From an uncultured bacterium (lineage in GTDB: Bacteria > Poribacteria > WGA-4E > PCPOR2b), in contig CAZOAL010000014.1 of assembly GCA_964577695.1 (NCBI GenBank), positions 49,250-113,249 of the forward strand: a stretch of 64,000 nucleotides of DNA, written 5' to 3'. This document shows positions 11,116 to 63,547 of the stretch, one piece after another (the stretch's first letter is position 1; every line of letters begins with the position of its first letter). Below the pieces are notes generated by a model. That model had not been told where the DNA came from. It did no database searches and was given only the letters and a program-made list of their open reading frames with translations. The translations under genes were made by a program, and so were the position numbers.

Positions 11116-12027
11116 TTGAAGGGAAAGAGAGTTGAATATCAAAAGTCCTTGAGAACGAAGCTGGAGCATCCGGTTTATCGAGAGCTCTTTGGACTCTCAG
11201 AGAATATTGAGCTGGAAGCTGAAGAAGATTTCGTCTTACAGCGGGAATTTCGGATTGACTTCGTTTTTCGGAAGATCGAGAAGAAACTGCCTCTTAGCGG
11301 AATCTTCTCGCACTTCAAAACGCATAACCTTTTCGAGTTCAAATCGGTCAATGACGCCTTTGACCTTGTCCAGTTAAGGAAGTATTTGGGCGAGTTGTTC
11401 TGGTGGTTATACCTCAAGGATGAGGGGCAGCTTGAAGGCAAGGAAGTTACCCTGACCATCATGACCGTCAGGAGACCGAGCAACGTGCTGAAGTATTTAC
11501 AACAACTGCACTCACAAATTGGCTTAAGGAACGAAAGCCCTGGCCATTACCAGTGGTCGGTGATGGAGATTGAGGTGCATCTTTTAGTAATCAACGAACT
11601 TGATGTCCTCCGCAAGCATTACGCCTGGCTGTTGTTTGCCGAAGGAAGGAAGTTTGAAGCCTACCGAGAACAGTTGTCACAAGACATCTCTGGCGATGAA
11701 ACTTCCCAAACCTACCTTGATATGATGAGTGAATTAGAACAGGAGGGAAAAGAAAGAATGGCGGATGAAATTCTCCAAAGAGTCATTAGTCGGATGTCCC
11801 CTGAACGTGCTGAGAAGCTAATTCTTGGCCTACCAGCAGCGGTGACGCAGCAGTTGCAGGTGAACGCAATGAAGAAGATGTTATCCCAACTATTGCAAGC
11901 GAAATTCGGCGCGTTGCCAGAGGAAGTTGTAGGTCGCATCCAAAAAGCAGAATCAGAAGATGAGTTATCTAACCTGGCCAAAAAGCTAATCACCGCTTCT
12001 TCTTGGGCTGAACTTGGATTGAGTTGA
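11116..12027 (+). CDS. Rpn/YhgA-like PD-(D/E)XK protein with a DUF4351-like C-terminus (transposase-like)
   Basis: The core REFRIDFVFRK...NLFEFKSVND is PD-(D/E)XK-like (D...E.K). The C-terminus LLQAKFGALPEEVVGRIQKAESEDELSNLAKKLITASSWAEL resembles DUF4351. TTG start. Confidence 0.45.
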   Translation: MKGKRVEYQKSLRTKLEHPVYRELFGLSENIELEAEEDFVLQREFRIDFVFRKIEKKLPLSGIFSHFKTHNLFEFKSVNDAFDLVQLRKYLGELFWWLYLKDEGQLEGKEVTLTIMTVRRPSNVLKYLQQLHSQIGLRNESPGHYQWSVMEIEVHLLVINELDVLRKHYAWLLFAEGRKFEAYREQLSQDISGDETSQTYLDMMSELEQEGKERMADEILQRVISRMSPERAEKLILGLPAAVTQQLQVNAMKKMLSQLLQAKFGALPEEVVGRIQKAESEDELSNLAKKLITASSWAELGLS

Positions 12028-12194: not shown

Positions 12195-14138
12195 ATGACT
12201 GGTAAGCGAAATGCTGAACGTCATCGCCCCATTTTTATCGCGCAAGTCGCCCGACTTGTACTTGGGTGGCACAGATTGATGGATTTACGCGATATGGATG
12301 AGAAATTGTCACTCAAAATCGAGCTTATCAAGCAGATTGGCTGGCTAGTCAAGTTGCGTTGGATCGCAATCACGGGTGTATTTGTCACCGTTGGTGTTGC
12401 GAGCTGGGGACTCCATATCATTGAGCAGCCATTGCCGCTGTTCGCGATCGCCACGCTGATGGTGCTCTACAATTTTGAGCCACAGATTTATCCCAAACAT
12501 ATCACAGAGAAACCCCTCGCATCGATTAAGCGGCACGCTGGAGCGCATATCATACTGGATGTGCTGTCGCTAACGGCGCTGATCCATTTTAGCGGCGGCG
12601 TCGAAAACCCGTTTATTTTCTACTTCATCTTCCACTTGATCATTGCCAGCATTATTCTCTCTAAAAGAGTGAGCTACATTCTCGCCACATTCAACACTGC
12701 CCTTCTGAGCTCCCTTATTTTCCTGGAGTATTATCACATCCTGCCTCACTATCATCTTGAAAATTTCTTGCCTGAAACGCTCTGGCGGGATGGACTCTAC
12801 ATTTCAAGCGTGCTGTTTGTGTTCACAAGTACCTTGTTTTTTTCTGTCTATCTGGCAACATCAATTATGGACACGGCAAGAGCCCGTGAAGCGGAAACGC
12901 GCGAGTTGAAGGAGAGCCTGGAGGAAAAGGTCGTTGAACTGGAAAAAACAAGGAAAGAGGTGCTCTTCGAGCGCAATAAACTCAAATCAATCATTGAGTG
13001 TATGCAGGAAGGGGTTGTCTTTGTCGATGACAAACACCGGGTGTCCCTATTCAATAAAGCCGCGCAGCAGATCAGAACAGAGAAATTAGGATTGGATGTC
13101 GAATACAGCCCCCACGCTCCGATTGGAGATTTTCCCCCGACAGCGCCTGCCTCGCGCCATCGGGGTTCGCGAGTTGCGCGCGGCGAAATCCCACAAAGCG
13201 GAAGCTTTGCTTCGCTCGAGCTATGTCCTGAAACTTACGGACCTCTGTTGCAAATTGCGGAAGAATTATCGAAGGGACACGCTGTGATTGAACACCAGAG
13301 CCTCCAACTCAAGGACAAGTTTTTTGAAAACACTTACTCTGCGGTGCGCGATGACACCGGTCACTATTTAGGGACGGTGCTGGTTTGCCGGGAGGTGACA
13401 GATCGGAAGCGAATGGAACAGCAGATGATTCAATCTGAAAAGATGGCTGCGATTGGAGAGTTGGCGGCAGGCGTTGCACATGAGATCAATAACCCACTGG
13501 ATGGCTTGCTCAATTGTATCCTGCGAATCAAGCGCAACCCAAAGAACGAAGAGCAGACCCAAGAATACTTGGATCTCATGGAAGAAGCCATTCGGCGGAT
13601 TGAATCGACGGTGGGACAACTCCTTAACTTTTCGCGTAAACATGAACTTGCGCTCACGTTGATTCCCTTGAATGAGGTTGTCGATGAGGTTGCGGTTTTG
13701 ATTGCATACAGCGCGGACGAAAAAGGCATCCGAATCGAGGAGCAGTTTCAAGCAGACCTCACTCCCATCCTTGGGGATAAACATCTTTTAGAGCAGGTGG
13801 TCCTGAATCTGGGACTCAACGCGATTGCCGCCATGCCCGATGGCGGTGTGCTGACTTTTAAGACCGGGAAGATCGAATTTGATTCCCTGCTCGGCGAGGC
13901 GGCTGTCTATGTCCAGATCACAGATACAGGAATTGGCATTCCGAAATCGGTTCAAGATCGAATTTTCGATCCGTTTTATACAACAAAGCTCACAGAGAAC
14001 GGCACAGGGCTTGGACTTTCCGTATCCAATCGAATCGTTAGACAACATGAGGGAGTGATTGAATTTGAAAGTGAGGTGGGCCGAGGTTCCACATTTACCG
14101 TTAAATTACCCATAAGGAGGATTCGAGAAGACACATGA
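12195..14138 (+). CDS. Membrane sensor histidine kinase (multi-TM, PAS-like, HisKA, HATPase_c)
   Basis: H-box AAGVAHEINNPL, an N-box, and the G-box TGIGIP...GTGLGLSV. The N-terminus has about 6 hydrophobic segments. The true start may be a downstream Met (about 12279). Confidence 0.85.
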   Translation: MTGKRNAERHRPIFIAQVARLVLGWHRLMDLRDMDEKLSLKIELIKQIGWLVKLRWIAITGVFVTVGVASWGLHIIEQPLPLFAIATLMVLYNFEPQIYPKHITEKPLASIKRHAGAHIILDVLSLTALIHFSGGVENPFIFYFIFHLIIASIILSKRVSYILATFNTALLSSLIFLEYYHILPHYHLENFLPETLWRDGLYISSVLFVFTSTLFFSVYLATSIMDTARAREAETRELKESLEEKVVELEKTRKEVLFERNKLKSIIECMQEGVVFVDDKHRVSLFNKAAQQIRTEKLGLDVEYSPHAPIGDFPPTAPASRHRGSRVARGEIPQSGSFASLELCPETYGPLLQIAEELSKGHAVIEHQSLQLKDKFFENTYSAVRDDTGHYLGTVLVCREVTDRKRMEQQMIQSEKMAAIGELAAGVAHEINNPLDGLLNCILRIKRNPKNEEQTQEYLDLMEEAIRRIESTVGQLLNFSRKHELALTLIPLNEVVDEVAVLIAYSADEKGIRIEEQFQADLTPILGDKHLLEQVVLNLGLNAIAAMPDGGVLTFKTGKIEFDSLLGEAAVYVQITDTGIGIPKSVQDRIFDPFYTTKLTENGTGLGLSVSNRIVRQHEGVIEFESEVGRGSTFTVKLPIRRIREDT

Positions 14139-15532
14139 AGGTACTGGTTGTTGACGATGAAAAGATTAAACGGATTACCCTGCGCGATGACCTGCGCGAG
14201 GCAAATTATGAGACCATTGCGGTTGAGTCTCCCACCATTGCGCTACAACTTTTGCAGAATGAATATTTTGATGTCCTTGTGACTGACCTGCGAATGCCTA
14301 AGATGCACGGAATTGAGTTTCTCAAGCGTGTCAAAAAAGAGTATCCACAGATGACCGTGATTATTATGACCGCTTATGCCAGCGTCGAAACGGCTGTGGA
14401 AGCGATGAAATTTGGGGCTTATAACTACATCAAAAAGCCCTTTTCGAGCCATGAACTGATTGTCATGTTGGATAAACTGAAGGGACTCCGTGGCGGGGAG
14501 GGGTTTGAAACCCGCGCGTATCCAGTTCACATGGAGCAGCGGTATCCGTATCACGATATCATTGGGAAAAGTCAGTCGATGAAAGAGATCTTTAACTTGC
14601 TTGAAACGATCTCCGATTCGAGCAGTAACGTGCTGATTTACGGTGAAAGAGGCACAGGAAAAGCGCTGCTTGCAAAATCCATCCATCTCAATAGCTTGCG
14701 CCGGCATCAGCCCTTTGTGGCTGTCAACTGTGCTGGCATATCGAAAGAGGGATTAGAGAGCGAAATCTTTGGACAAGAGAAGCCCCCCCTCCTCAATTCA
14801 CCCCCAACATTGGCAGAGGAAGGCGAGGGGGCAGATACCCCCGATCGGAAATCGGGGTTCAAGTTAGCGCATAAAGGCACGCTTTTTCTCAAAGAAGTGA
14901 ATCACACTCCCGCTGAGTTTCAAGCCAAGCTACTCCGCATCCTCGAAGAACTGGCGTTTGAGCGAGTGCGAGGAAGCCGGACAATTCACGGAGACGTTCG
15001 GGTGATTGCCTCAACGACGGAAAATTTGCGAAATAAAGTTCAAAGCGGTGCCTTTCGGGATGACTTATTCTATCGGCTGAATGTGGTCCCAATCTTTCTA
15101 CCCCCCCTGCGTGAACGGGCGGAGGATATTCCCCTCTTAATCAACCATTTTCTAGAGCTATTCTCTCCCAATCGTCCCATCCACAGTGCCCCCCAGGCGG
15201 TCGAGCTGCTGATGGGATACCCATGGCCGGGAAATGTACGCGAATTAGAAAATGCTATTGAAAGACTTGTAACGGTTGGCGGGGGTCGAGATATCACCGT
15301 TGAAGATATTCCACTCGAATTCAAACTGCCGACCTCTATCGGCCTTCATGATACATTAGGCGAGACTTCGTTTCAGGAGATTATCCAATCGACGGAACGC
15401 GAACTCATTGCCTGGGCAATGCAGAAGACAAAAGGGAACAAAACCCAGGCGGCAAAGCTGCTTAAAATGAAGCCTTCCACCTTCCGTGACGCCCTCTCCA
15501 AATACATCAACGAGATTGAGTGGGAAAGATGA
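14135..15532 (+). CDS. NtrC-family response regulator (REC, AAA+ sigma54-interaction domain, Fis HTH) lacking the GAFTGA motif
   Basis: REC (VLVVDDE...DVLVTDLRMP), Walker A GERGTGK, GAFRDDLFYRLNV, RERAEDI, and a C-terminal HTH (NKTQAAKLLKMKPSTFR). It overlaps the kinase stop by 4 nt. Confidence 0.85.
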   Translation: MKVLVVDDEKIKRITLRDDLREANYETIAVESPTIALQLLQNEYFDVLVTDLRMPKMHGIEFLKRVKKEYPQMTVIIMTAYASVETAVEAMKFGAYNYIKKPFSSHELIVMLDKLKGLRGGEGFETRAYPVHMEQRYPYHDIIGKSQSMKEIFNLLETISDSSSNVLIYGERGTGKALLAKSIHLNSLRRHQPFVAVNCAGISKEGLESEIFGQEKPPLLNSPPTLAEEGEGADTPDRKSGFKLAHKGTLFLKEVNHTPAEFQAKLLRILEELAFERVRGSRTIHGDVRVIASTTENLRNKVQSGAFRDDLFYRLNVVPIFLPPLRERAEDIPLLINHFLELFSPNRPIHSAPQAVELLMGYPWPGNVRELENAIERLVTVGGGRDITVEDIPLEFKLPTSIGLHDTLGETSFQEIIQSTERELIAWAMQKTKGNKTQAAKLLKMKPSTFRDALSKYINEIEWER

Positions 15533-16934: not shown

Positions 16935-17789
16935 ATGGTTCAAGTGGTTCCGTTGAGATACGACACGGCGTTTAAGAAAGCCTTCAGCCAACCGACAATC
17001 TTTTGTCAGTTCGTCCACGATGTGTTGGGGGTAGACATCCAGATTGAGAAAGTCCATCAGGGATATCGATACCTCAAACCGGTGGGACAGGTGGATATTG
17101 AGTACGATCTGTTTGCCGAGGATGAGGCGACCCGAATGGTTGTGGAGATCCAGCATGTGAAGGAGCGAGACTTCTTTGATCGCCCCGATGGATCGGGATC
17201 TCGCTTCGCTAGAGACTTTCTCTACTATCACCTCGTCAGTTTGGTCGAGCAGGTGAAAAGCAGTCGGAATTATCAAATCGATAAGACCGTCTATACAGTC
17301 GTGGTGCTGACCAGCCCGTCTCTTGACACGGGAATCGATTGCAGTGTGCTAATGGGGGATATCAGTTTTGTCAATGAGTTCAGACGGAAAGTGGAGATAT
17401 ATCCGCATCAATTGGTGTTCTTGGTGCCGCGCCTGGTCAATGAGGAAACTCCCGAAGGCATCAAGGCGTGGCTGGAGTTGATTGCGGACTCGTTGGACGA
17501 TGAGATTGATGAATCACGATATGTTTCCCCGATCTTCCAACAGGTGATTGAAGCCATCGAGATGGACAACCTTTCCCCAGAGGAACGTCGTAAACTGAAG
17601 GACGAAGCCGTTTGGGAGGATGCATTGAAAGCGGATTATGAGAAAGGGCGCGAAGATGGACTCCGGGAAGGAAAAGAGCAGATCGCCCGTTCCCTCCTGA
17701 GAGAAGGAGTGGACATTGACGTGATTACAAGGACAACCGGACTCGATCGGAAAACGGTCGAGAAACTCGAAACCCAACGAATAACATAA
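16935..17789 (+). CDS. PD-(D/E)XK nuclease-family transposase-like protein (Rpn family / TIGR01784-like)
   Basis: N-terminal YDTAFKKAFSQP...FVHDVLG, then VDIEYDLFAEDEATRMVVEIQHVKERDFFDR, which matches the family pattern (D...E.Q). Confidence 0.65.
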   Translation: MVQVVPLRYDTAFKKAFSQPTIFCQFVHDVLGVDIQIEKVHQGYRYLKPVGQVDIEYDLFAEDEATRMVVEIQHVKERDFFDRPDGSGSRFARDFLYYHLVSLVEQVKSSRNYQIDKTVYTVVVLTSPSLDTGIDCSVLMGDISFVNEFRRKVEIYPHQLVFLVPRLVNEETPEGIKAWLELIADSLDDEIDESRYVSPIFQQVIEAIEMDNLSPEERRKLKDEAVWEDALKADYEKGREDGLREGKEQIARSLLREGVDIDVITRTTGLDRKTVEKLETQRIT

Positions 17790-21453: not shown

Positions 21454-21530
21454 CGATCAAACCTCTTATACCATTTTTAGTTTGAAATGCGACGATTTGT
21501 CGGGAACCCAATCCCCCTCACTCACATCTA

Positions 21531-21574
21531 ATGCTAAATGCTAAATTTAGCATTTAGCATTTAGCATTTAGCAT
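21531..21574. repeat. (ATGCTAA)x2 abutting (TTAGCAT)x4; includes a perfect 30-nt palindrome
   Basis: 21531-21560 atgctaaatgctaaatttagcatttagcat is its own reverse complement. Two more TTAGCAT units follow. Confidence 0.95.
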
Positions 21575-21890
21575 TGTCATAGAATAGTCGCATCTGGAAG
21601 TCCAAATGGTATTATCTGTTAATAACTTCCGAACGACCTTAAAGCCGGGTTTGTTTGCTCTGGCCCCGGCTTCAATCTGCTCCCATGTCATCTGACTAAA
21701 CTCAGCCCAACTCTGTGAGCCTTTTGGAAGTTGAGCCTGTTTAACGCTTCCTTGCTTTTGCTTGAGTATATCAGCAACTTTTTGCCCCGAGAACTTATGT
21801 ACAATTTTCTTTGCCTCCCTTTTAATTCTTGAGGTGGGTGTGTGCCGCGCTCCTTCACCCTTCTACTGTAACCTGAACGTGCTTTGACGC

Positions 21891-25126: not shown

Positions 25127-26881
25127 TCATTGAGCCGCGCTCCCTTCAATGACTTCGATGACACGATTCACCTCGAGGTCGGCGTACCGATCGCTCCGTC
25201 CAGATGGCCAAATCACCTCTAGCGATTCAACCCTTTTGCTTTGCCCTAACCCGAAAGTGAGCACCGTTTCACTCTGAGAGCAATAGCTACTTCCCGTCCG
25301 AACTATCCGTCGTTGCGTCACGCCCCCCGCTTTGATGATCATTTTTGCACCGATGCCGTCTCGATTACTCCCCCCCCCGCCCGCGGGGGGGACCAAAGGG
25401 GAAATGCCCCTGACCCCCCCGTGGACGGGGGGGGTGCCAATCGTTTTGACACGCAGATAGTTGTTCCGATTCCCGCCATCATTTCGTAATAGCCACGCCT
25501 TCCCATAATCTGGATGGACGCCGTTGTTGGAGACCAGCACATCGACATCCCCATCGTTATCATAGTCACCGTAGGCTGCGCCGCGTCCGACGCCCAGCTT
25601 CCCAAGCCCAACCTGGGAAGCGATCTCCTCAAAGGTGCCGTCATGCCGATTCCAAAAGAGTGACGGCAGTTGTGTGTAGCTCACATTCTGCTGATATCGA
25701 CCCACATCCGGCTCAATGTGGCCGTTCACGCAGAACAGGTCCAGGTAGCCGTCCAGATCGAAATCGAAGAAGAACAGACCGAATGTCAACGTGAGCAGGC
25801 TTGCGTTTCCAATCTTCACTCGCGTTGCCAGATCGGAGAAGTAATCCCCCGGGCGGGCATAGAAAAACGCTGTCATTTCGTTGCTGAAATTCCCGATTGA
25901 GATTGCAAGCCCGCCATCGTTATGCACATCCGCCGCGTCGATTCCCATGCCGCCTCGTGCGCTTCCGCTCTCATCGAACGCAACGCCCATCAGGATGGCT
26001 TCATCAGTGAATGTACCATCACCGTTGTTGTGATACAGGAAATTCGGCTCGGTATCATTCGCAACGGCGAGGTCCAGCCAACCGTCGTCGTCATAGTCCA
26101 GCAACGTCACGCCGAGCGACTTGCCGTTGGGGTTGTAGACGCCGGACGATGTGGTTACATCTTCAAAAGTCCCATTCCCACGGTTATGGTAGAGGCGACA
26201 GGATTGGCCCGGATAAACGCTCGGTGTGCAGTAAGATGGGTGCCGGTGATCGACTGTGCAGGGGATATCCGTTTCGATCGTCCATTGCACATAGTTGCAC
26301 ACGAATAAATCCAGCCAGCCGTCTCGATCATAATCGAAAAACGCGGCGCTCGTAGACCAGCTTGGGTCCCCAACCTTTGCTATCTCGGTCACATCGGTGA
26401 ACGTGCCATCCCCGTTGTTGCGGAAAAGTCGATTAGGACCCAGATTGGTGAAGTAGAGGTCGGCATCTCCGTCGTTGTCATAATCGGCGATGGCGACGCC
26501 CATGCCGTACATCGACACGTCTAACTTTGCCGCACGGGTGACATCGGAAAACCTGCCATCCCCCAGATTGCGATAGAGTTTGGGCGTCTGATTGGACTTG
26601 CCATCACTCCAACTTTTCCCATTGACGAGGAGGATGTCCAAATTTCCATCGTTGTCGAAGTCAAGGAAGGCGCAACCTGCCCCCATCGTTTCAGGCATAT
26701 ATCGCTTCCCGGCCGCTCCGGTGAAATGTCTGAAATCAATCCCCGCCTGATTGGTGACATCAACGAACTTCACAGCGGGGGGGGTAGCATAACTGGTTCC
26801 GATGCAGAGGGTGAGCGCGAAACATAAAACGTGAAACGTGAGGGGTGAAACGTGAAACGTAAAACGTGAGGGGTGAGGCAT
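25127..26881 (-). CDS. CRTAC1-family secreted protein (FG-GAP/VCBS repeats plus ASPIC/UnbV C-terminal domain)
   Basis: Repeated D-x-D-x-DG-x-x-D motifs (DFDNDGNLDIL, DYDNDGDADLY, DYDRDGWLDLF, DYDDDGWLDLA, DFDLDGYLDLF, DYDNDGDVDVL) and an UnbV-like tail (NRDGIGAKMIIK...RTGSSYCSQSE). Confidence 0.8.
   Translation of the reverse strand: MPHPSRFTFHVSPLTFHVLCFALTLCIGTSYATPPAVKFVDVTNQAGIDFRHFTGAAGKRYMPETMGAGCAFLDFDNDGNLDILLVNGKSWSDGKSNQTPKLYRNLGDGRFSDVTRAAKLDVSMYGMGVAIADYDNDGDADLYFTNLGPNRLFRNNGDGTFTDVTEIAKVGDPSWSTSAAFFDYDRDGWLDLFVCNYVQWTIETDIPCTVDHRHPSYCTPSVYPGQSCRLYHNRGNGTFEDVTTSSGVYNPNGKSLGVTLLDYDDDGWLDLAVANDTEPNFLYHNNGDGTFTDEAILMGVAFDESGSARGGMGIDAADVHNDGGLAISIGNFSNEMTAFFYARPGDYFSDLATRVKIGNASLLTLTFGLFFFDFDLDGYLDLFCVNGHIEPDVGRYQQNVSYTQLPSLFWNRHDGTFEEIASQVGLGKLGVGRGAAYGDYDNDGDVDVLVSNNGVHPDYGKAWLLRNDGGNRNNYLRVKTIGTPPVHGGVRGISPLVPPAGGGGSNRDGIGAKMIIKAGGVTQRRIVRTGSSYCSQSETVLTFGLGQSKRVESLEVIWPSGRSDRYADLEVNRVIEVIEGSAAQ
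26818..26878. repeat. Heptamer repeat block (GTGAAAC/GTAAAAC/GTGAGGG) inside the 5' end of the CRTAC1 ORF
   Basis: cgaaacataaaacgtgaaacgtgaggggtgaaacgtgaaacgtaaaacgtgaggggtgagg. Confidence 0.9.
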
Positions 26882-29195: not shown

Positions 29196-29228
29196 AGACT
29201 TCCGAAGTCTCACAGACTTCGGAAGTCT
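29196..29228. terminator. AGACTTCCGAAGTCT-family double hairpin between convergent genes
   Basis: agacttccgaagtct, cacag, acttcggaagtct. It lies between the stop at 29185 (+) and the stop at 29257 (-). Confidence 0.5.
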
Positions 29229-31639: not shown

Positions 31640-31856
31640 CGAAGAAAAATCCTTTCATTTCAAATCTTCAGAAGGTTCCGAACCTTCCGAAGGTTAAAAC
31701 CGTCGTCGTTCTCAAATTCTAACCGAAAAGCGGAAGATTGTCAATTCTGTTGTTAAGTTTCTGGGCACCAATTTTCGCAGGTTAGTTCAAACGGGAAGAA
31801 GAAACCGGGGGCAGTAAGAAACCGAGTTTTTTGGTTATAGCCGGTGATGTTCAGAC

Positions 31857-31939
31857 CTAACCCCCCGGCCCCCTTCCCTCTAGGGAAGGGGAGTCTTCTC
31901 CCCTCTCCGTGTCGGGGAGGGGCGGGGGGAGGGGTTTAG
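31857..31939. repeat. GC-rich compound palindromic element (intergenic copy)
   Basis: ctaaCCCCCCGGCCCCCTTCCCTCTAGGGAAGGGGAG...TCCCCTCTCCgtgtcGGGGAGGGGCGGGGGGAGGGGtttag. Related palindromes lie inside three genes (14782, 25371, 63245). Confidence 0.7.
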
Positions 31940-33922: not shown

Positions 33923-33957
33923 CAGACTTCCGAAGTCTTGGAGACTTCGGAAGTCTG
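33923..33957 (+). terminator. AGACTTCCGAAGTCT-family double hairpin after the caspase remnant
   Basis: cagacttccgaagtcttggagacttcggaagtctg. Confidence 0.5.
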
Positions 33958-43140: not shown

Positions 43141-43206
43141 CGTAATGCGTAAAACGTAAAACGTAAAGCGGGCTGAATGACGTTTTACGGGTTACGTTTT
43201 ACGGGT
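43141..43206. repeat. Inverted heptamer block (CGTAAAA)n / (TTTTACG)n
   Basis: cgtaatgcgtaaaacgtaaaacgtaaagcgggctgaatgacgttttacgggttacgttttacggg. Confidence 0.9.
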
Positions 43207-43283
43207 TCCGCCGGATTGAGTTTACCGAAATCTCGAAATGTACACAATTTTCTGAAACATGCCCGATAACGGAGGAAACTCTC

Positions 43284-43508
43284 ATGTCAAAATTGCGAGT
43301 CGCTGTCCTCGGCTGCGGTGGACGTGGCCGGGGACATATTGGGATTCTCAAAGGGTTTGAGGATGTAGAACTGGTTGCCGTCTGCGATGGACAACGCCAC
43401 GAACTGAGCGGCGCGGGCACCAGCGGCACGCGGGAACAGATCGGGTATCAAGACTTCCGAAGTTTTGGAAACTTCGGAAGTCTGACCCTACACGGACTTA
43501 TGAAGTGA
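43284..43508 (+). pseudogene. N-terminal fragment of a Gfo/Idh/MocA oxidoreductase
   Basis: MSKLRVAVLGCGGRGRGHIGILKGFEDVELVAVCD is a Rossmann start. The ORF then runs into the hairpin element at 43451-43483 and stops after 74 aa. Confidence 0.55.
43451..43483. repeat. AGACTTCCGAAGT-family double hairpin
   Basis: agacttccgaagttttggaaacttcggaagtct. Confidence 0.85.
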
Positions 43509-48977: not shown

Positions 48978-49030
48978 AGAGCAATGATGTGATGTGTATC
49001 GCGTAATATGTGAAATGTGAAAGGAAGGAA

Positions 49031-49063
49031 AGAAACCGAGTTTCTCCAAGAAACTCGGTTTCT
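49031..49063. repeat. GAAACCGAGTTT-family hairpin
   Basis: agaaaccgagtttct ccaag aaactcggtttct. Confidence 0.85.
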
Positions 49064-49085
49064 TGGGTTCTCCTGTCTCCATGTC

Positions 49086-50126
49086 CTAATTGTCACCCTT
49101 GAGATCTTGTGCCAATTGCGACACCAGGACGAGTCCTCCGAGTCCAACGCCACAATAGGTTGTGAAGAAGCGCGTCAACAAGGCATATAGCCCAATCGCT
49201 ACTGGAGCGAGCAGGTTCCGCATCAGAACGATAGATAAAAATTCTGCGATTCCACTCGCCCCCGGACTCGGCGCAAATAACGTCGCGAAGTTCAGGATGA
49301 CCTGGGCGGCAACCACATGCCAAAACAGAGCGTGCCCACCCAACGCGCGTACAACGACATACCCACCGACAAATCGACTCATATAGATACCACCCGTCAA
49401 CACAAAACTCAAGACACAAACCATCTTGTGGTCTGTGATGAACATACGGGTGAACGCTTTGTGCCCCAGGATGAGTTTCTCGAGGGTATGGAGCAGGCGA
49501 TCTAAGCCTTTTGCTATAGGGCGGAACCTCCGCCCTCTGGGAAGTCGAATACGATTCAAGAAGATTAAAAGCACGTCCGGCTTGATCGCTAACAGGAGAA
49601 AAAAGAGTAATACGAGGAGAAACATTAACAGGCTGTATTGGCTGACAAACGTGATGCCTTTGGGCAGGGAATCGGGAGCGCGCCAGACGACATACCCTGT
49701 CGAAAGAATCAGAAATGTCAACGTGCCAATGAAGGAGATGATGCCTGAAGTCACACCTCCCGACACGGGCACTCCGACCCGGTTGAAAATATAGATATGT
49801 CCAACACCGCCCGTTTGAAATGGCGTAATGCCTCCGACACAGAGAGTCGCCAAATTTGCACGAATGCTGTCAAGGTATGTGACTTGGGGTGACATCTTTC
49901 GAGCAAAGACATGGAAGCGCCCAGCGCCACATAGCCAATCGGCAATCATGCAAAGCGTTGCGAGAAGTAAGAGTTTCCCATTTATCGAATATAAGACACG
50001 ACCTATATTCTCCGTACCACTCCATAAAAAGCTAACCGATAATCCAAGAATCGTACAGAGAACAAAAAACAGATAACCACGAATCAGATTTTTCCGATTC
50101 AGTGACTGACTAAAGAATTCTTGCAT
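49086..50126 (-). CDS. UPF0104 / flippase-like membrane protein (second copy)
   Basis: About 8 transmembrane segments with the GGITPFQTGGVGHIY motif region. The stop lies 4 nt upstream of the longest epimerase ORF. Confidence 0.6.
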   Translation of the reverse strand: MQEFFSQSLNRKNLIRGYLFFVLCTILGLSVSFLWSGTENIGRVLYSINGKLLLLATLCMIADWLCGAGRFHVFARKMSPQVTYLDSIRANLATLCVGGITPFQTGGVGHIYIFNRVGVPVSGGVTSGIISFIGTLTFLILSTGYVVWRAPDSLPKGITFVSQYSLLMFLLVLLFFLLLAIKPDVLLIFLNRIRLPRGRRFRPIAKGLDRLLHTLEKLILGHKAFTRMFITDHKMVCVLSFVLTGGIYMSRFVGGYVVVRALGGHALFWHVVAAQVILNFATLFAPSPGASGIAEFLSIVLMRNLLAPVAIGLYALLTRFFTTYCGVGLGGLVLVSQLAQDLKGDN

Positions 50127-50207: not shown

Positions 50208-50280
50208 GATGCAGGATTCAAGATACAGGATTCAGAGATTCGCTGGCATCTTGCATCTTGTATCTTGCATCTTGTATCTG
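50208..50280. repeat. Inverted heptamer block (GATGCAG/GATTCAA...ATCTTGC/ATCTTGT)
   Basis: gatgcaggattcaagatacaggattcagagattcgctggcatcttgcatcttgtatcttgcatcttgtatct. Confidence 0.9.
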
Positions 50281-56127: not shown

Positions 56128-56189
56128 GATGGAAGGATGGAAGAATGGAAGGTTGCCTACTTCCATCCTTCCATTCTTCCATCCTTCCA
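56128..56189. repeat. Inverted octamer block (GGAAGGAT/GGAAGAAT)n // (ATCCTTCC/ATTCTTCC)n
   Basis: ggatggaaggatggaagaatggaagg ttgcctac ttccatccttccattcttccatccttcc. Confidence 0.9.
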
Positions 56190-58928: not shown

Positions 58929-58945
58929 GAAACGTCGCGGGGAAA

Positions 58946-58978
58946 AGAAACCGAGTTTTTTGGAAAAACTCGGTTTCT
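58946..58978. repeat. GAAACCGAGTTTTT-family perfect hairpin
   Basis: agaaaccgagttttt tgg aaaaactcggtttct. Confidence 0.85.
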
Positions 58979-59126
58979 TCATCTCCACACATGCAAAAAC
59001 TTTTGGGCAGGTACTTAGCTTGACTTTGTTAAATTAGAATCGGTATGAAATACCCCAGCGCGCACGGTTGCGAGCAGTTCGCGCTCCAAATCTGTATCTT
59101 TAGTCAACAAGGTGTTCACCTCCACA

Positions 59127-61601: not shown

Positions 61602-62063
61602 ATGCCATCTGCATTGAAAGTATCCGTCTTTGATCTGTTATCACCTGTTCTGGCAGATGAAGGAATTGAGTTAGTTGATGTCGAACATGAAGGCAAAGGT
61701 AACCGCCAGGTGTTAAGACTTTTAATCTATAAACCCGGCGGCGTCAAGATTGAGGATTGCCAACAGGTGAGCCGAATCGTCAGCCCGATTCTAGGCGTTC
61801 ATGAAGTGATAAAAGACAAATGGACTTTAGAAGTCGCCTCCCCGGGAGTAGACCGCCCCCTTGTGACGGAAGCGGACTTCCGCAGGAACCTAGGTCGACA
61901 GATTCAAATCGAAGCGTTATCTTCAACGGGGCATTCCTTAAAACTACGCGGCATTCTGAAAGCGGTGAACGAGGGGGCGGTTTTGCTGAATCAACCGTCG
62001 GGGGAAACAACTCAAGTTGGCATTTCAGAGATTACGAAAGCCCAAATCCAACTGATGTGGTAA
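61602..62063 (+). CDS. rimP: Ribosome maturation factor RimP
   Basis: ...GIELVDVEHEGKGNRQVLRLLIYKPGGVKIEDCQQVSR...LEVASPGVDRPL.... Confidence 0.85.
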   Translation: MPSALKVSVFDLLSPVLADEGIELVDVEHEGKGNRQVLRLLIYKPGGVKIEDCQQVSRIVSPILGVHEVIKDKWTLEVASPGVDRPLVTEADFRRNLGRQIQIEALSSTGHSLKLRGILKAVNEGAVLLNQPSGETTQVGISEITKAQIQLMW

Positions 62064-62092
62064 TATCTTGGGTGGATGATGGAGAAAAAACA

Positions 62093-63547
62093 ATGAATAA
62101 TGATCTGCTCATGATCATTCGCCAAATCATGGATCAGACAGAACTACCACGGGAGACCTTCCTGGAAGCGATTGAAGCTGCCTTATATTCAGCAGCGAAG
62201 AGACGTTATGGCTCAACTCGCGGGGTATCCATTCAAATCGATCCTGAGATGGGTGACATTAAATGTTATGTGCCGAAAAAAGTGGTTGAGATCATGCGCC
62301 ACTATGCAAAGGAAATTCCGATTGAGGAAGCCTTAAAAATAAAGCCTGATGTCCAATTAAATGACATTATTACAGTGGAAGTGGATCCAAGAGAGTTTGG
62401 AAGGGTTGAAGCCCAAACCGCCCGTCAAATCCTGGTTCAAAAAATTAAAGAAGCAGAACGTGAACAGGTCTATCAGGAATATAAAGCGCGTGAAGGAGAA
62501 ATTGTTACGGGTCATCTGCAACGCATTGAACGCGGCAATCTCATCCTTGATTTGGAGCGAGCGGAAGGGCTATTGCCCTATAGTGAGATTCCCCACCCGC
62601 ACAATTACCAACGTGGGGATATGCTCAAGTGTCTGGTCCTGGAGGTCCAACGTGATGCCAAGGGGGCACAGATTATTCTTTCTCGAACGCATCCCGGTTT
62701 GATTGCTCGCTTATTTGAAATGGAAGTTCCTGAAATCTATGAAGGATTGGTTCGCATTATGGCGATCGCCCGGGACCCGGGCGATCGAGCCAAGGTTGCG
62801 GTTGCCGCAACCACTGAAAATATTGATGCCGTTGGGACTTGCGTTGGAGTGAAGGGGTCACGGGTTCAGATGGTTGTGCGGGAACTGGAAGGCGAGAAAA
62901 TTGATCTCCTCGAATGGAATCCAGATTCCGCCATTTTTATCGCTAACGCATTGCAGCCTGCCATTGTGGTTCACGTCAATACGAACGAGGAAAACGAAAG
63001 TGCAGAAGTTGTTGTACCGGATAGCCAATTATCCTTAGCGATTGGCAGGCGTGGGCAGAACGCTCGTCTTGCAGCACGTTTGACAGGTTGGAAAATTGAT
63101 ATCAAAAGTGAATCTGAAGTCGAAGCCCAATTGAAGGAAAGCATCACGGGTGAGTTATTCAAACAGGGAGAGATTAAATCCAAATTGGAGAACCGCAGGG
63201 GCGCCGAATCACTCCATCACCCGTCAACTCCTTCTCCTCTCCCCACCTCTCCCCTCCCCTCTAGGGGAGGGGAAGGGGGAGAGGTGGAGGCGAATGGAGT
63301 GATGGGTGAGTCTGGTGCCGGAGTGCCGCAGGAGCCATCTCTCAATGATACTGAAATTGATATTACGGATTTGGAGGGTGTGGGGGCTAAGACTGCAACG
63401 ATTCTCAGGGAGTTTGGGTTTTCAACCGTTGCGTTAATCGCAAACGCAACGCTAGAAGCCCTTTCAGCCGTGCCGGGAATTGGCACTAAAACAGCGGAGA
63501 AAATTCGCCACTCCGCATTGAAGACGCTTTCGACCTCTGAAATCTGA
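62093..63547 (+). CDS. nusA: Transcription termination/antitermination factor NusA
   Basis: MNNDLLMIIRQIMDQTELPRETFLEAIEAAL..., S1 (GEIVTGHLQRIERGNLILDL), KH domains (AVGTCVGVKGSRVQMVV; LAIGRRGQNARLAARLTGWKIDI), and a C-terminal HhH (LEGVGAKTATIL...VPGIGTKTAEKI). Confidence 0.9.
   Translation: MNNDLLMIIRQIMDQTELPRETFLEAIEAALYSAAKRRYGSTRGVSIQIDPEMGDIKCYVPKKVVEIMRHYAKEIPIEEALKIKPDVQLNDIITVEVDPREFGRVEAQTARQILVQKIKEAEREQVYQEYKAREGEIVTGHLQRIERGNLILDLERAEGLLPYSEIPHPHNYQRGDMLKCLVLEVQRDAKGAQIILSRTHPGLIARLFEMEVPEIYEGLVRIMAIARDPGDRAKVAVAATTENIDAVGTCVGVKGSRVQMVVRELEGEKIDLLEWNPDSAIFIANALQPAIVVHVNTNEENESAEVVVPDSQLSLAIGRRGQNARLAARLTGWKIDIKSESEVEAQLKESITGELFKQGEIKSKLENRRGAESLHHPSTPSPLPTSPLPSRGGEGGEVEANGVMGESGAGVPQEPSLNDTEIDITDLEGVGAKTATILREFGFSTVALIANATLEALSAVPGIGTKTAEKIRHSALKTLSTSEI

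Follow-up and report, generated by a model that had tools for sequence, protein, structure and literature searches.

The 64-kb window analyzed here (the whole 64,000-nucleotide stretch, positions 49,250 to 113,249 of contig CAZOAL010000014.1, from an uncultured bacterium of the Poribacteria) encodes an NtrC-type response regulator whose sigma-54-type AAA+ domain lacks the GAFTGA motif of canonical bacterial enhancer-binding proteins (EBPs) and carries a 34-residue L1 loop at the corresponding position. Our analysis favors, with a probability of about 0.75, an account in which this protein belongs to a Poribacteria regulator family that was ancestrally devoid of GAFTGA, and in which a later, species-level insertion into the loop was tolerated in a gene that is still functional. 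The regulator adds a new member to the known class of atypical EBPs, one that is specific to its phylum and whose loop expansion is specific to its species.

Ancestral loss of GAFTGA in a Poribacteria regulator family

The features of the regulator gene, with coordinates given on the window, are as follows.

14135..15532, + strand: response regulator gene with receiver (REC), sigma-54-type AAA+, lid and Fis-type helix-turn-helix (HTH) domains, 465 aa
14141..14470, + strand: receiver domain, residues 3-112 (Pfam)
14642..14665, + strand: Walker A P-loop GERGTGKA, residues 170-177
14774..14875, + strand: L1-loop segment between FG and GTLFL, residues 214-247 (34 residues), without GAFTGA
14789..14836 (about), + strand: 48 nt (16 codons) inserted in frame, lineage-specific, LLNSPPTLAEEGEGAD, from ortholog alignment, with a placement ambiguity of ~6 nt
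14879..14899, + strand: degenerate Walker B TLFLKEV, residues 249-255
15056..15058, + strand: codon of the Arg finger R308, within GAFRDDLFYRL, present in the window protein
15392..15505, + strand: Fis-type HTH_8 DNA-binding domain, residues 420-457 (Pfam)

Pfam searches identified Response_reg, Sigma54_activat (PF00158; residues 142-320, 1.2e-48), AAA_lid_14 (6e-23) and HTH_8 domains, and NCBIfam models placed the protein nearest to AtoC/NtrC, far under any equivalog cut-off. Around the site of interest, the translation of the open reading frame (ORF) at 14135-15532 reads ...ESEIFGQEKPPLLNSPPTLAEEGEGADTPDRKSGFKLAHKGTLFLKEV..., which bears out an initial annotation of this DNA in its observation that GAFTGA is absent and that Walker B reads LFLKEV, with K253 in place of the Mg-coordinating Asp and E254 retained. 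The same annotation was also right that the rest of the AAA+ module and the HTH are intact, since Walker A, GAFRDDLFYRL, PLRER, sensor II (NVRELEN; R369) and the HTH are all present. The protein hence combines the AAA+ and lid domains, Walker A, Arg finger and sensor II of a canonical EBP with the absence of GAFTGA and of the Walker B DE pair. It also displays the hallmarks of an NtrC-subfamily response regulator, namely an intact receiver pocket and an adjacent cognate kinase with conserved pairing. Six-frame translation of the whole window revealed no GAFTGA-like motif. The AlphaFold2 model of the regulator shows a normal REC/AAA+/HTH architecture (mean pLDDT 77.6), and its best structural match in the PDB is Brucella NtrX, followed by NtrC1.

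To place these features in an evolutionary context, we assembled a family set comprising the window protein and its 119 best homologs (n = 120), which are 59-73% identical to it and, where named, derive from Candidatus Poribacteria. Neither GAFTGA nor the Walker B DE pair is found in any of the 120 members. The first Walker B position is occupied by Q (37 members), K (34), A (20), D (15) or T (10), and the second is D in 107. The Walker A signature G-x2-G-x-GK (G170, G173, G175, K176), on the other hand, is invariant (120/120), as is the phospho-acceptor pocket (D7, D8, D51, T79, K101) in the 56 family members aligned over it. Other elements of the ATPase have eroded in part of the family, with the Arg finger R308 replaced by L or Q in 22 of 120 members and the sensor II Arg R369 lost in 30.

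The segment between FG and GTLFL is likewise variable. It spans 18 residues in 40 members and 11 in 71, compared to 22 in Aquifex NtrC1; the lengths seen in the family are 11, 13, 14, 18, 22, 23 and 34, the last only in the window protein. Typical ortholog forms of the segment are FGRESPADNHRVGRFELAHKGTLFLDDV, in a protein of ~452 aa, and FGDKQTENEFGRKGTLFLQDI, in one of 439 aa. With lengths this varied, the L1 loop of the family can be regarded as a hot spot for indels. The 48-nt insertion is absent from all 119 orthologs (≤73% identical), and the fact that these insert-free proteins also lack GAFTGA and the Walker B DE pair argues that both were lost ancestrally and not through the insertion.

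The boundaries of the family are sharp. An exhaustive HMMER search over 1.8 billion cluster representatives recovered all of it in one cluster at 50% identity (628 bits), with the next matches at ≤397 bits. The nearest outside relatives are ≤48% identical and come from other phyla, those named being Latescibacterota, Planctomycetota and KSB1. Of the 149 representatives that follow, 142 contain GAFTGA-like motifs, and Walker B reads DE or DD wherever the pattern matched. We considered using these nearest canonical relatives as a guide to sigma-54 in the Poribacteria, and rejected them as uninformative on account of their belonging to other phyla. Judged from these comparisons, the loss of GAFTGA and the decay of the hydrolysis site are ancestral to a sharply bounded Poribacteria family, rather than a consequence of the insert.

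A fixed in-frame insertion in a gene under purifying selection

The initial annotation had described a 20-aa insert that replaced GAFTGA. The insert is real, but it amounts to 16 residues when measured against the nearest orthologs and to 12 against Aquifex NtrC1, and it cannot have replaced a motif that orthologs without it also lack. Contigs from two runs of one sediment study (X1 and X3) are identical to the window over 14400-15200, and contigs from groundwater, soil and hot-spring metagenomes in five other studies are 93-97% identical and all contain the insert. It is carried by X4, X6, X7, X8 and X11, and by an independent Candidatus Poribacteria metagenome-assembled genome (MAG) contig (GCA_016178185.1; hereafter L001), which encodes ...EKPPLLNSTATLGGEDEGADTPDRKSGFKLAHKGTLFLKEV. 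The only length change within the insert among strains is an in-frame 6-nt deletion in X7, and no empty allele was found among the strain-level relatives examined. The insert is therefore fixed across the examined strain-level (~95%-identical) relatives, which come from several habitats.

Comparison of the window with L001 yielded a dN/dS of 0.106 (dS = 0.27) for the part of the gene from the AAA+ domain to the HTH outside the insert, and of 0.146 for the adjacent kinase gene. The 20 codons around the insert, by contrast, have accumulated five nonsynonymous and no synonymous changes. The low ratio outside the insert argues that the gene has not been inactivated, and these patterns together point to a regulator under purifying selection in which the insert is a tolerated loop expansion. 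In the AlphaFold2 model, residues 214-240 are devoid of secondary structure and residues 227-236 have pLDDT values below 50, so the insert is predicted to be a disordered, fast-evolving extension of a loop that was probably already functionless.

The same comparison revealed that the receiver part of the gene is near-identical between window (14135-14480) and L001 (5605-5950), with a dS of 0.04, whereas the rest of the gene and the kinase present dS values of ~0.25-0.27. This contrast suggests a recombination mosaic.

Palindromic elements and the origin of the insertion

The insertion coincides with a palindrome, and similar GC-rich structures occur elsewhere in the window.

14782..14832, no strand: imperfect C-then-G palindrome coinciding with the insertion, GCCCCCCCTCCTC ... 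GAGGAAGGCGAGGGGGC
14839..14857, no strand: short hairpin CCCCGAT/ATCGGGG with a 7-bp stem, outside the insertion, over codons aligning with ortholog residues
31855..31935, no strand: intergenic nested-palindrome repeat, designated E82, ~81 nt, with sharp ends
25367..25436, no strand: multi-copy GC-rich palindromic element, in frame in an ASPIC/UnbV-like gene (25127-26881, - strand)
63237..63293, no strand: one-hairpin relative of E82, in frame in the NusA linker (ORF 61820-63547, + strand), reading …PSTPSPLPTSPLPSRGGEGGEVEA…
13083..13220, + strand: hypervariable loop in the PAS region of the kinase, from strain comparison

The two arms of the palindrome at the insertion, 14782-14793 and 14821-14832, can form 10 of 12 pairs, in a fold that reaches 13 or more pairs. 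They bracket the 48-nt insertion almost exactly, its length is a multiple of three, and a C-run precedes a G-run. The DNA of the insert had been read as two hairpin-forming palindromes, of which the first is real but imperfect. The second (14839-14857) lies over codons with aligned ortholog residues and is commonplace, with 105 perfect 7-bp hairpins of this kind in the window; it consequently carries no weight, and its stem is broken in relatives by a G>C change at 14854. No compensatory changes were found in the stem of the insert among strains, where substitutions break pairs, and hence the hairpin is not selected as a structure. A further candidate, a palindromic insertion in the REC-AAA+ linker (GGGTTTGAAACCC at 14500), was discarded on finding that the linker peptide is ancestral across the family.

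Read depth identified the elements at 25371, 31857 and 63245 as repeats, with 20- to 100-fold increases over 25371-25437, 31855-31935 and 63247-63285. E82, a GC-rich nested palindrome composed of an outer stem and two hairpins, is present in ~30 copies per genome-equivalent in the source run (depth 600-670 versus 19.7), and its other copies lie on contigs at genome depth. Its core 24-nt hairpin, TCCCCTCTCCGTGTCGGGGAGGGG, was found exactly in 26 species-genome loci (L005-L030), with hosts including Bipolaricaulota/Acetothermia, Latescibacterota, Chloroflexota, Planctomycetota (Fimbriiglobus), the cyanobacterium Tumidithrix PCC 7403, Thermotogae and a betaproteobacterial Alcaligenaceae MAG; in all, at least eight phylum-level groups share this hairpin. 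At several of these loci all three stems of the element are present, and hairpin 1 shows compensatory changes; the copies there are mostly intergenic. An Rfam scan of the 31855 element returned only sub-threshold microRNA look-alikes, and literature searches for Poribacteria palindromic repeats, GC-rich in-frame MITEs (miniature inverted-repeat transposable elements) and E82 sequence strings found nothing relevant in the collection searched.

The copies within genes are in frame. The ASPIC element reaches a depth of ~450 versus 15 in X4, and an empty site is present in X4, X6 and X7 (GCTTTGGACT, encoding ...KTIGVQSNRDGIGA...). The filled site in the window reads ...KTIGTPPVHGGVRGISPLVPPAGGGGSNRDGIGA..., a net in-frame gain of 60 nt that puts 'TPPVHGGVRGISPLVPPAGGGG' in place of 'VQ' directly ahead of the SNRDGIGA motif of this FG-GAP protein. 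An exact-pattern scan for ASPIC-type elements in species genomes gave no match. The NusA core (63247-63285) is also multi-copy, with a depth of ~480 versus 19. With a covariance model (R1) trained on eight copies of the 31855 element drawn from across phyla, E82 scored 84 bits, the NusA copy 30.8 and the ASPIC copy 19.8. All three elements, at 25371, 31857 and 63245, are genuine mobile repeats in multiple copies and are related to each other. The initial annotation had likened the EBP insert to them, but the insert is not detectably related to any of the three.

Strain comparison provided a further case in the kinase, where the PAS-region loop exists as three in-frame alleles of 27, 57 and 138 nt among ~95%-identical strains. 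The 27-nt allele (CAAGTTGGGCTTGATACCGAAAATAAT) is ancestral, the 138-nt allele of the window represents a net gain of 111 nt, and the 57-nt allele of L001 (3586-3646) is a near-perfect C-then-G palindrome. The window contains 10 GC-rich hairpins where shuffled sequences contain 2.75 on average (~3.6-fold enrichment). Seven of these 10 are of the C-then-G type, of which three other Poribacteria loci gave no example. Coding sequences of this genome demonstrably acquire short GC-rich palindromes in frame, and the presence of these varies from strain to strain. We identified no mobilizing enzyme for the palindromic elements of the window.

The closest known parallel is provided by Rickettsia palindromic elements (RPEs) and other in-frame MITEs, mentioned in PMC1779305 and in the MITE review PMC10969869. 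These are short palindromes that lie in frame within genes without destroying them, much as the ASPIC and NusA copies do. The elements described here differ in their GC-richness, in arms that consist of a C-run followed by a G-run, in a length of 57-81 nt and in a core common to many phyla.

Several results weigh against the account developed so far. In L001, the REC-AAA+ linker has lost 89 nt (L001 5890-5976, the counterpart of window 14484-14572), a frameshifting deletion that divides the regulator into two ORFs, and the gene may be dispensable in some strains, or the L001 MAG misassembled. The 91-nt region around the insert does fold better than shuffled sequences, but modestly so (z = -2.2). 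No second copy of the insert was detected by read depth, which is flat over 14778-14858 in X1 and X4, or by BLAST in the window and in loci L001-L004. Pairwise similarity of the insert to the other palindromic elements is not significant (p = 0.07-0.45; 0.11 for the E82 type), and its score with covariance model R1 (9.4 bits, E = 3.6) is at the level of noise.

Metagenome contigs of similar strains (X4) cover the linker and do not have the 89-nt deletion, which may be strain-specific or an assembly error.

The first alternative to be considered for the origin of the 48 nt is ordinary replication slippage or another indel in an unconstrained loop, with a palindromic appearance that would be a chance product of its Pro (CCN) and Gly/Glu (GGN/GAG) codons. 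We give this explanation close to an even chance. It accords with the indel-prone nature of the L1 loop, with an insert that is single-copy and devoid of homology to repeat families, with the modest z-score of its fold and with stem pairing that strain substitutions do not preserve. It leaves unexplained, however, that the arms bracket the insertion so closely, that the C-then-G polarity is that of the proven kinase and ASPIC insertions, that the window is enriched for such hairpins and that no more than 3 of 200 shuffles of the 91-nt region fold as well. Genomic context, polarity and coincident boundaries make an origin from the GC-rich palindromic insertions of this lineage plausible, at somewhat less than even odds, with an ordinary indel about equally likely. 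The more specific proposal that the insert is an old, decayed copy of the C-then-G element class active in the lineage is a tentative one, and we consider it possible rather than probable.

Proposed mode of action and comparison with known regulators

Atypical EBPs such as NtrX, VpsR, HupR, TyrR, PhhR, HsfA and the NtrC proteins of Rhodobacter and Caulobacter are characterized by the absence of GAFTGA, an often non-consensus Walker B and activity at sigma-70 promoters (PMC6158489, PMC10274813). The window regulator shares the sequence features of this class, with an EBP-type AAA+ domain without a functional GAFTGA and non-consensus hydrolysis residues (KE here; Q/K/A/D/T followed by D in the family).

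Its best structural match is NtrX of Brucella abortus (PDB 5M7N/5M7O/5M7P; sequence match 5e-64), which has the same combination of REC, EBP-type AAA+ and HTH domains, also lacks GAFTGA and is listed among the atypical EBPs (PMC6158489). The window regulator is only ~30% identical to NtrX, belongs to a Poribacteria-specific family, is paired with a PilS-like kinase instead of NtrY and bears the extra 16-residue insert. VpsR of Vibrio cholerae (PDB 7V2B) resembles it in the lack of GAFTGA and in a non-canonical Walker B (ND in VpsR; KE here and mostly xD in the family), and works with sigma-70 RNA polymerase (PMC6158489). VpsR differs in requiring cyclic di-GMP and in a receiver that is not conventionally phosphorylated, and is 26% identical in structural alignment.

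The NtrC proteins of Rhodobacter capsulatus and Caulobacter crescentus offer a parallel for the loop itself. Deletions in their L1 loop remove GAFTGA, and the L1 segments of 11 and 18 residues found in the Poribacteria family also fall short of the canonical 22. These proteins regulate sigma-70 promoters and still require phosphorylation (PMC10274813). Unlike the window protein, in which the loop has re-expanded to 34 residues, they retain nitrogen-regulation roles and partners. Aquifex aeolicus NtrC1 and NtrC4 (PDB 1NY5, 4L4U, 3DZD), the best matches among solved structures (7.5e-74), have the same three-domain order, but possess GAFTGA and the Walker B DE pair where the window regulator has its 12 additional residues and a Lys for Asp.

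We propose that the family descended from canonical NtrC/AtoC-type EBPs and that GAFTGA and the Walker B DE pair would have been lost before the sampled Poribacteria diverged, with the P-loop, the phospho-acceptor pocket and the Fis-type HTH being kept. By analogy with characterized regulators, the adjacent kinase would phosphorylate the protein, the conserved P-loop would drive nucleotide-dependent oligomerization and the HTH would bind DNA at sigma-70-type promoters without sigma-54 remodeling. Later, in the species-level clade of the window, 48 nt (16 codons) would have been added in frame to a functionless L1 loop, generating a disordered Pro/Gly/acidic stretch that would be tolerated and fast-evolving and would leave the gene unimpaired. 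Because of the analogy with NtrX, VpsR and the Rhodobacter and Caulobacter NtrC proteins, we infer that the regulator most likely acts as a phosphorylation-controlled, nucleotide-binding DNA-binding factor at sigma-70-type promoters; that it binds ATP is suggested by the conserved P-loop. The earlier suggestion of a sigma-54-independent or ATPase-degenerate regulator of the HupR/TyrR type is supported in this respect, but as an ancestral state of the whole family and not as a feature of this gene.

It is improbable, in our assessment, that the regulator still depends on sigma-54 through a non-canonical, lineage-specific L1 loop, with the insert as part of a re-invented contact surface. In favor of this reading, the AAA+ core and lid of the window protein are present together with the Arg finger and sensor II, and NCBI names members of the family 'sigma-54-dependent', but the name follows from the domain alone. 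Neither the sequence nor the length of the loop is conserved across the family, the insert differs at 5 of 20 codons between strains and the Walker B Asp, replaced by Lys here, is variable among family members. Furthermore, -24/-12 promoters are not in excess in the 64-kb window, where a single TGGCAC-N5-TTGCW site (one mismatch) was found and 2.4 would be expected by chance, and the characterized EBPs without GAFTGA are all sigma-54-independent (PMC6158489, PMC10274813). Searches confined to the 64-kb window found no rpoN (an ORF with an RpoN box) and no other EBP.

An even smaller likelihood attaches to the possibility, raised in the initial annotation, that a mobile GC-rich palindrome entered a canonical EBP, eliminated its GAFTGA and rendered the regulator inactive with the frame kept open. 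A palindrome does coincide with the insert, and other genes of this genome have received mobile palindromes in frame. Against this, the 119 insert-free orthologs were already devoid of both GAFTGA and the Walker B DE pair, dN/dS has stayed at 0.11 outside the insert after the insertion, and the insert is fixed in strain-level relatives, with its sole indel being in frame. Finally, an assembly or sequencing artefact, conceivable for error-prone GC-rich palindromes in a metagenome assembly, can be practically dismissed in view of the identical contigs from two runs and the ungapped, diverged copies in five other studies and an independent MAG, all of which keep the insert, so that resequencing does not restore GAFTGA.

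Genomic context and other repeats

The regulator gene is preceded by that of its cognate kinase.

12195..14138, + strand: cognate sensor histidine kinase, PilS-like, with six transmembrane segments and PAS, HisKA and HATPase_c domains (Pfam and orthologs)

Kinase orthologs span 94% of the ORF at 12195-14138, the true start of which is probably ~40 codons downstream of the ORF start. The stop codon of the kinase overlaps the start codon of the regulator (ATGA), and the two genes hence form one operon. The gene order EutN/CcmL, histidine kinase, response regulator and 5-formyltetrahydrofolate cyclo-ligase is kept in distant Poribacteria genomes; it can be seen in loci L003 and L004, and also in L002, where the EutN/CcmL gene is missing.

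Two PDDEXK_2/Rpn-like genes (recombination-promoting nuclease/putative transposase), at 11116-12027 and 16935-17789, lie on either side of the kinase-regulator operon and interrupt this gene order in the window. In L001, a PDDEXK_2/Rpn-like gene is located between the kinase and the regulator.

Other repeats are also present in the window. Long palindromes with tandem heptamer-like arms, such as (AATGCTA)n, (CGTAAAA)n and (TGGAAGG)n, are found at 21530-21575, 43141-43210, 50208-50278 and 56130-56189. Related repeats of the ACGTGAA type occur upstream of several minus-strand genes, where over-extended ORFs read them as 'RFTFHVS…'. Two perfect palindromes of 15-16 nt, AGACTTCCGAAGTCT and AAGAAACCGAGTTTCT, recur at 29196-29228, 33923-33957 and 43451-43483, and at 49030-49064 and 58945-58979; they look like repetitive extragenic palindromic (REP)-like or terminator-like sequences.

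Implications

The GC-rich palindromic repeat family is the most interesting by-product of this analysis. Through the entry of palindromes in frame, proteins that are otherwise conserved can acquire Pro/Gly-rich loop insertions, a process that confounds both homology-based annotation and MAG assembly. If the 48-nt insert were indeed a decayed copy of such an element, the Poribacteria would constitute a second, independent RPE-like case of mobile palindromes remodeling proteins in frame, and the elements would appear to prefer loops no longer under constraint, examples being the vestigial L1 loop of an atypical EBP and its kinase's PAS loop.

The regulator itself should not be annotated or modeled as a sigma-54 activator. 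With its ~120 known relatives, it makes up a phylum-wide, sharply bounded family of EBPs without GAFTGA and with a degenerate ATPase site, which extends the small set of atypical EBPs to a lineage outside the Proteobacteria. In this family the L1 loop, once without sigma-54 contact, would have been free to shrink, to 11 residues, or to grow, to 34.

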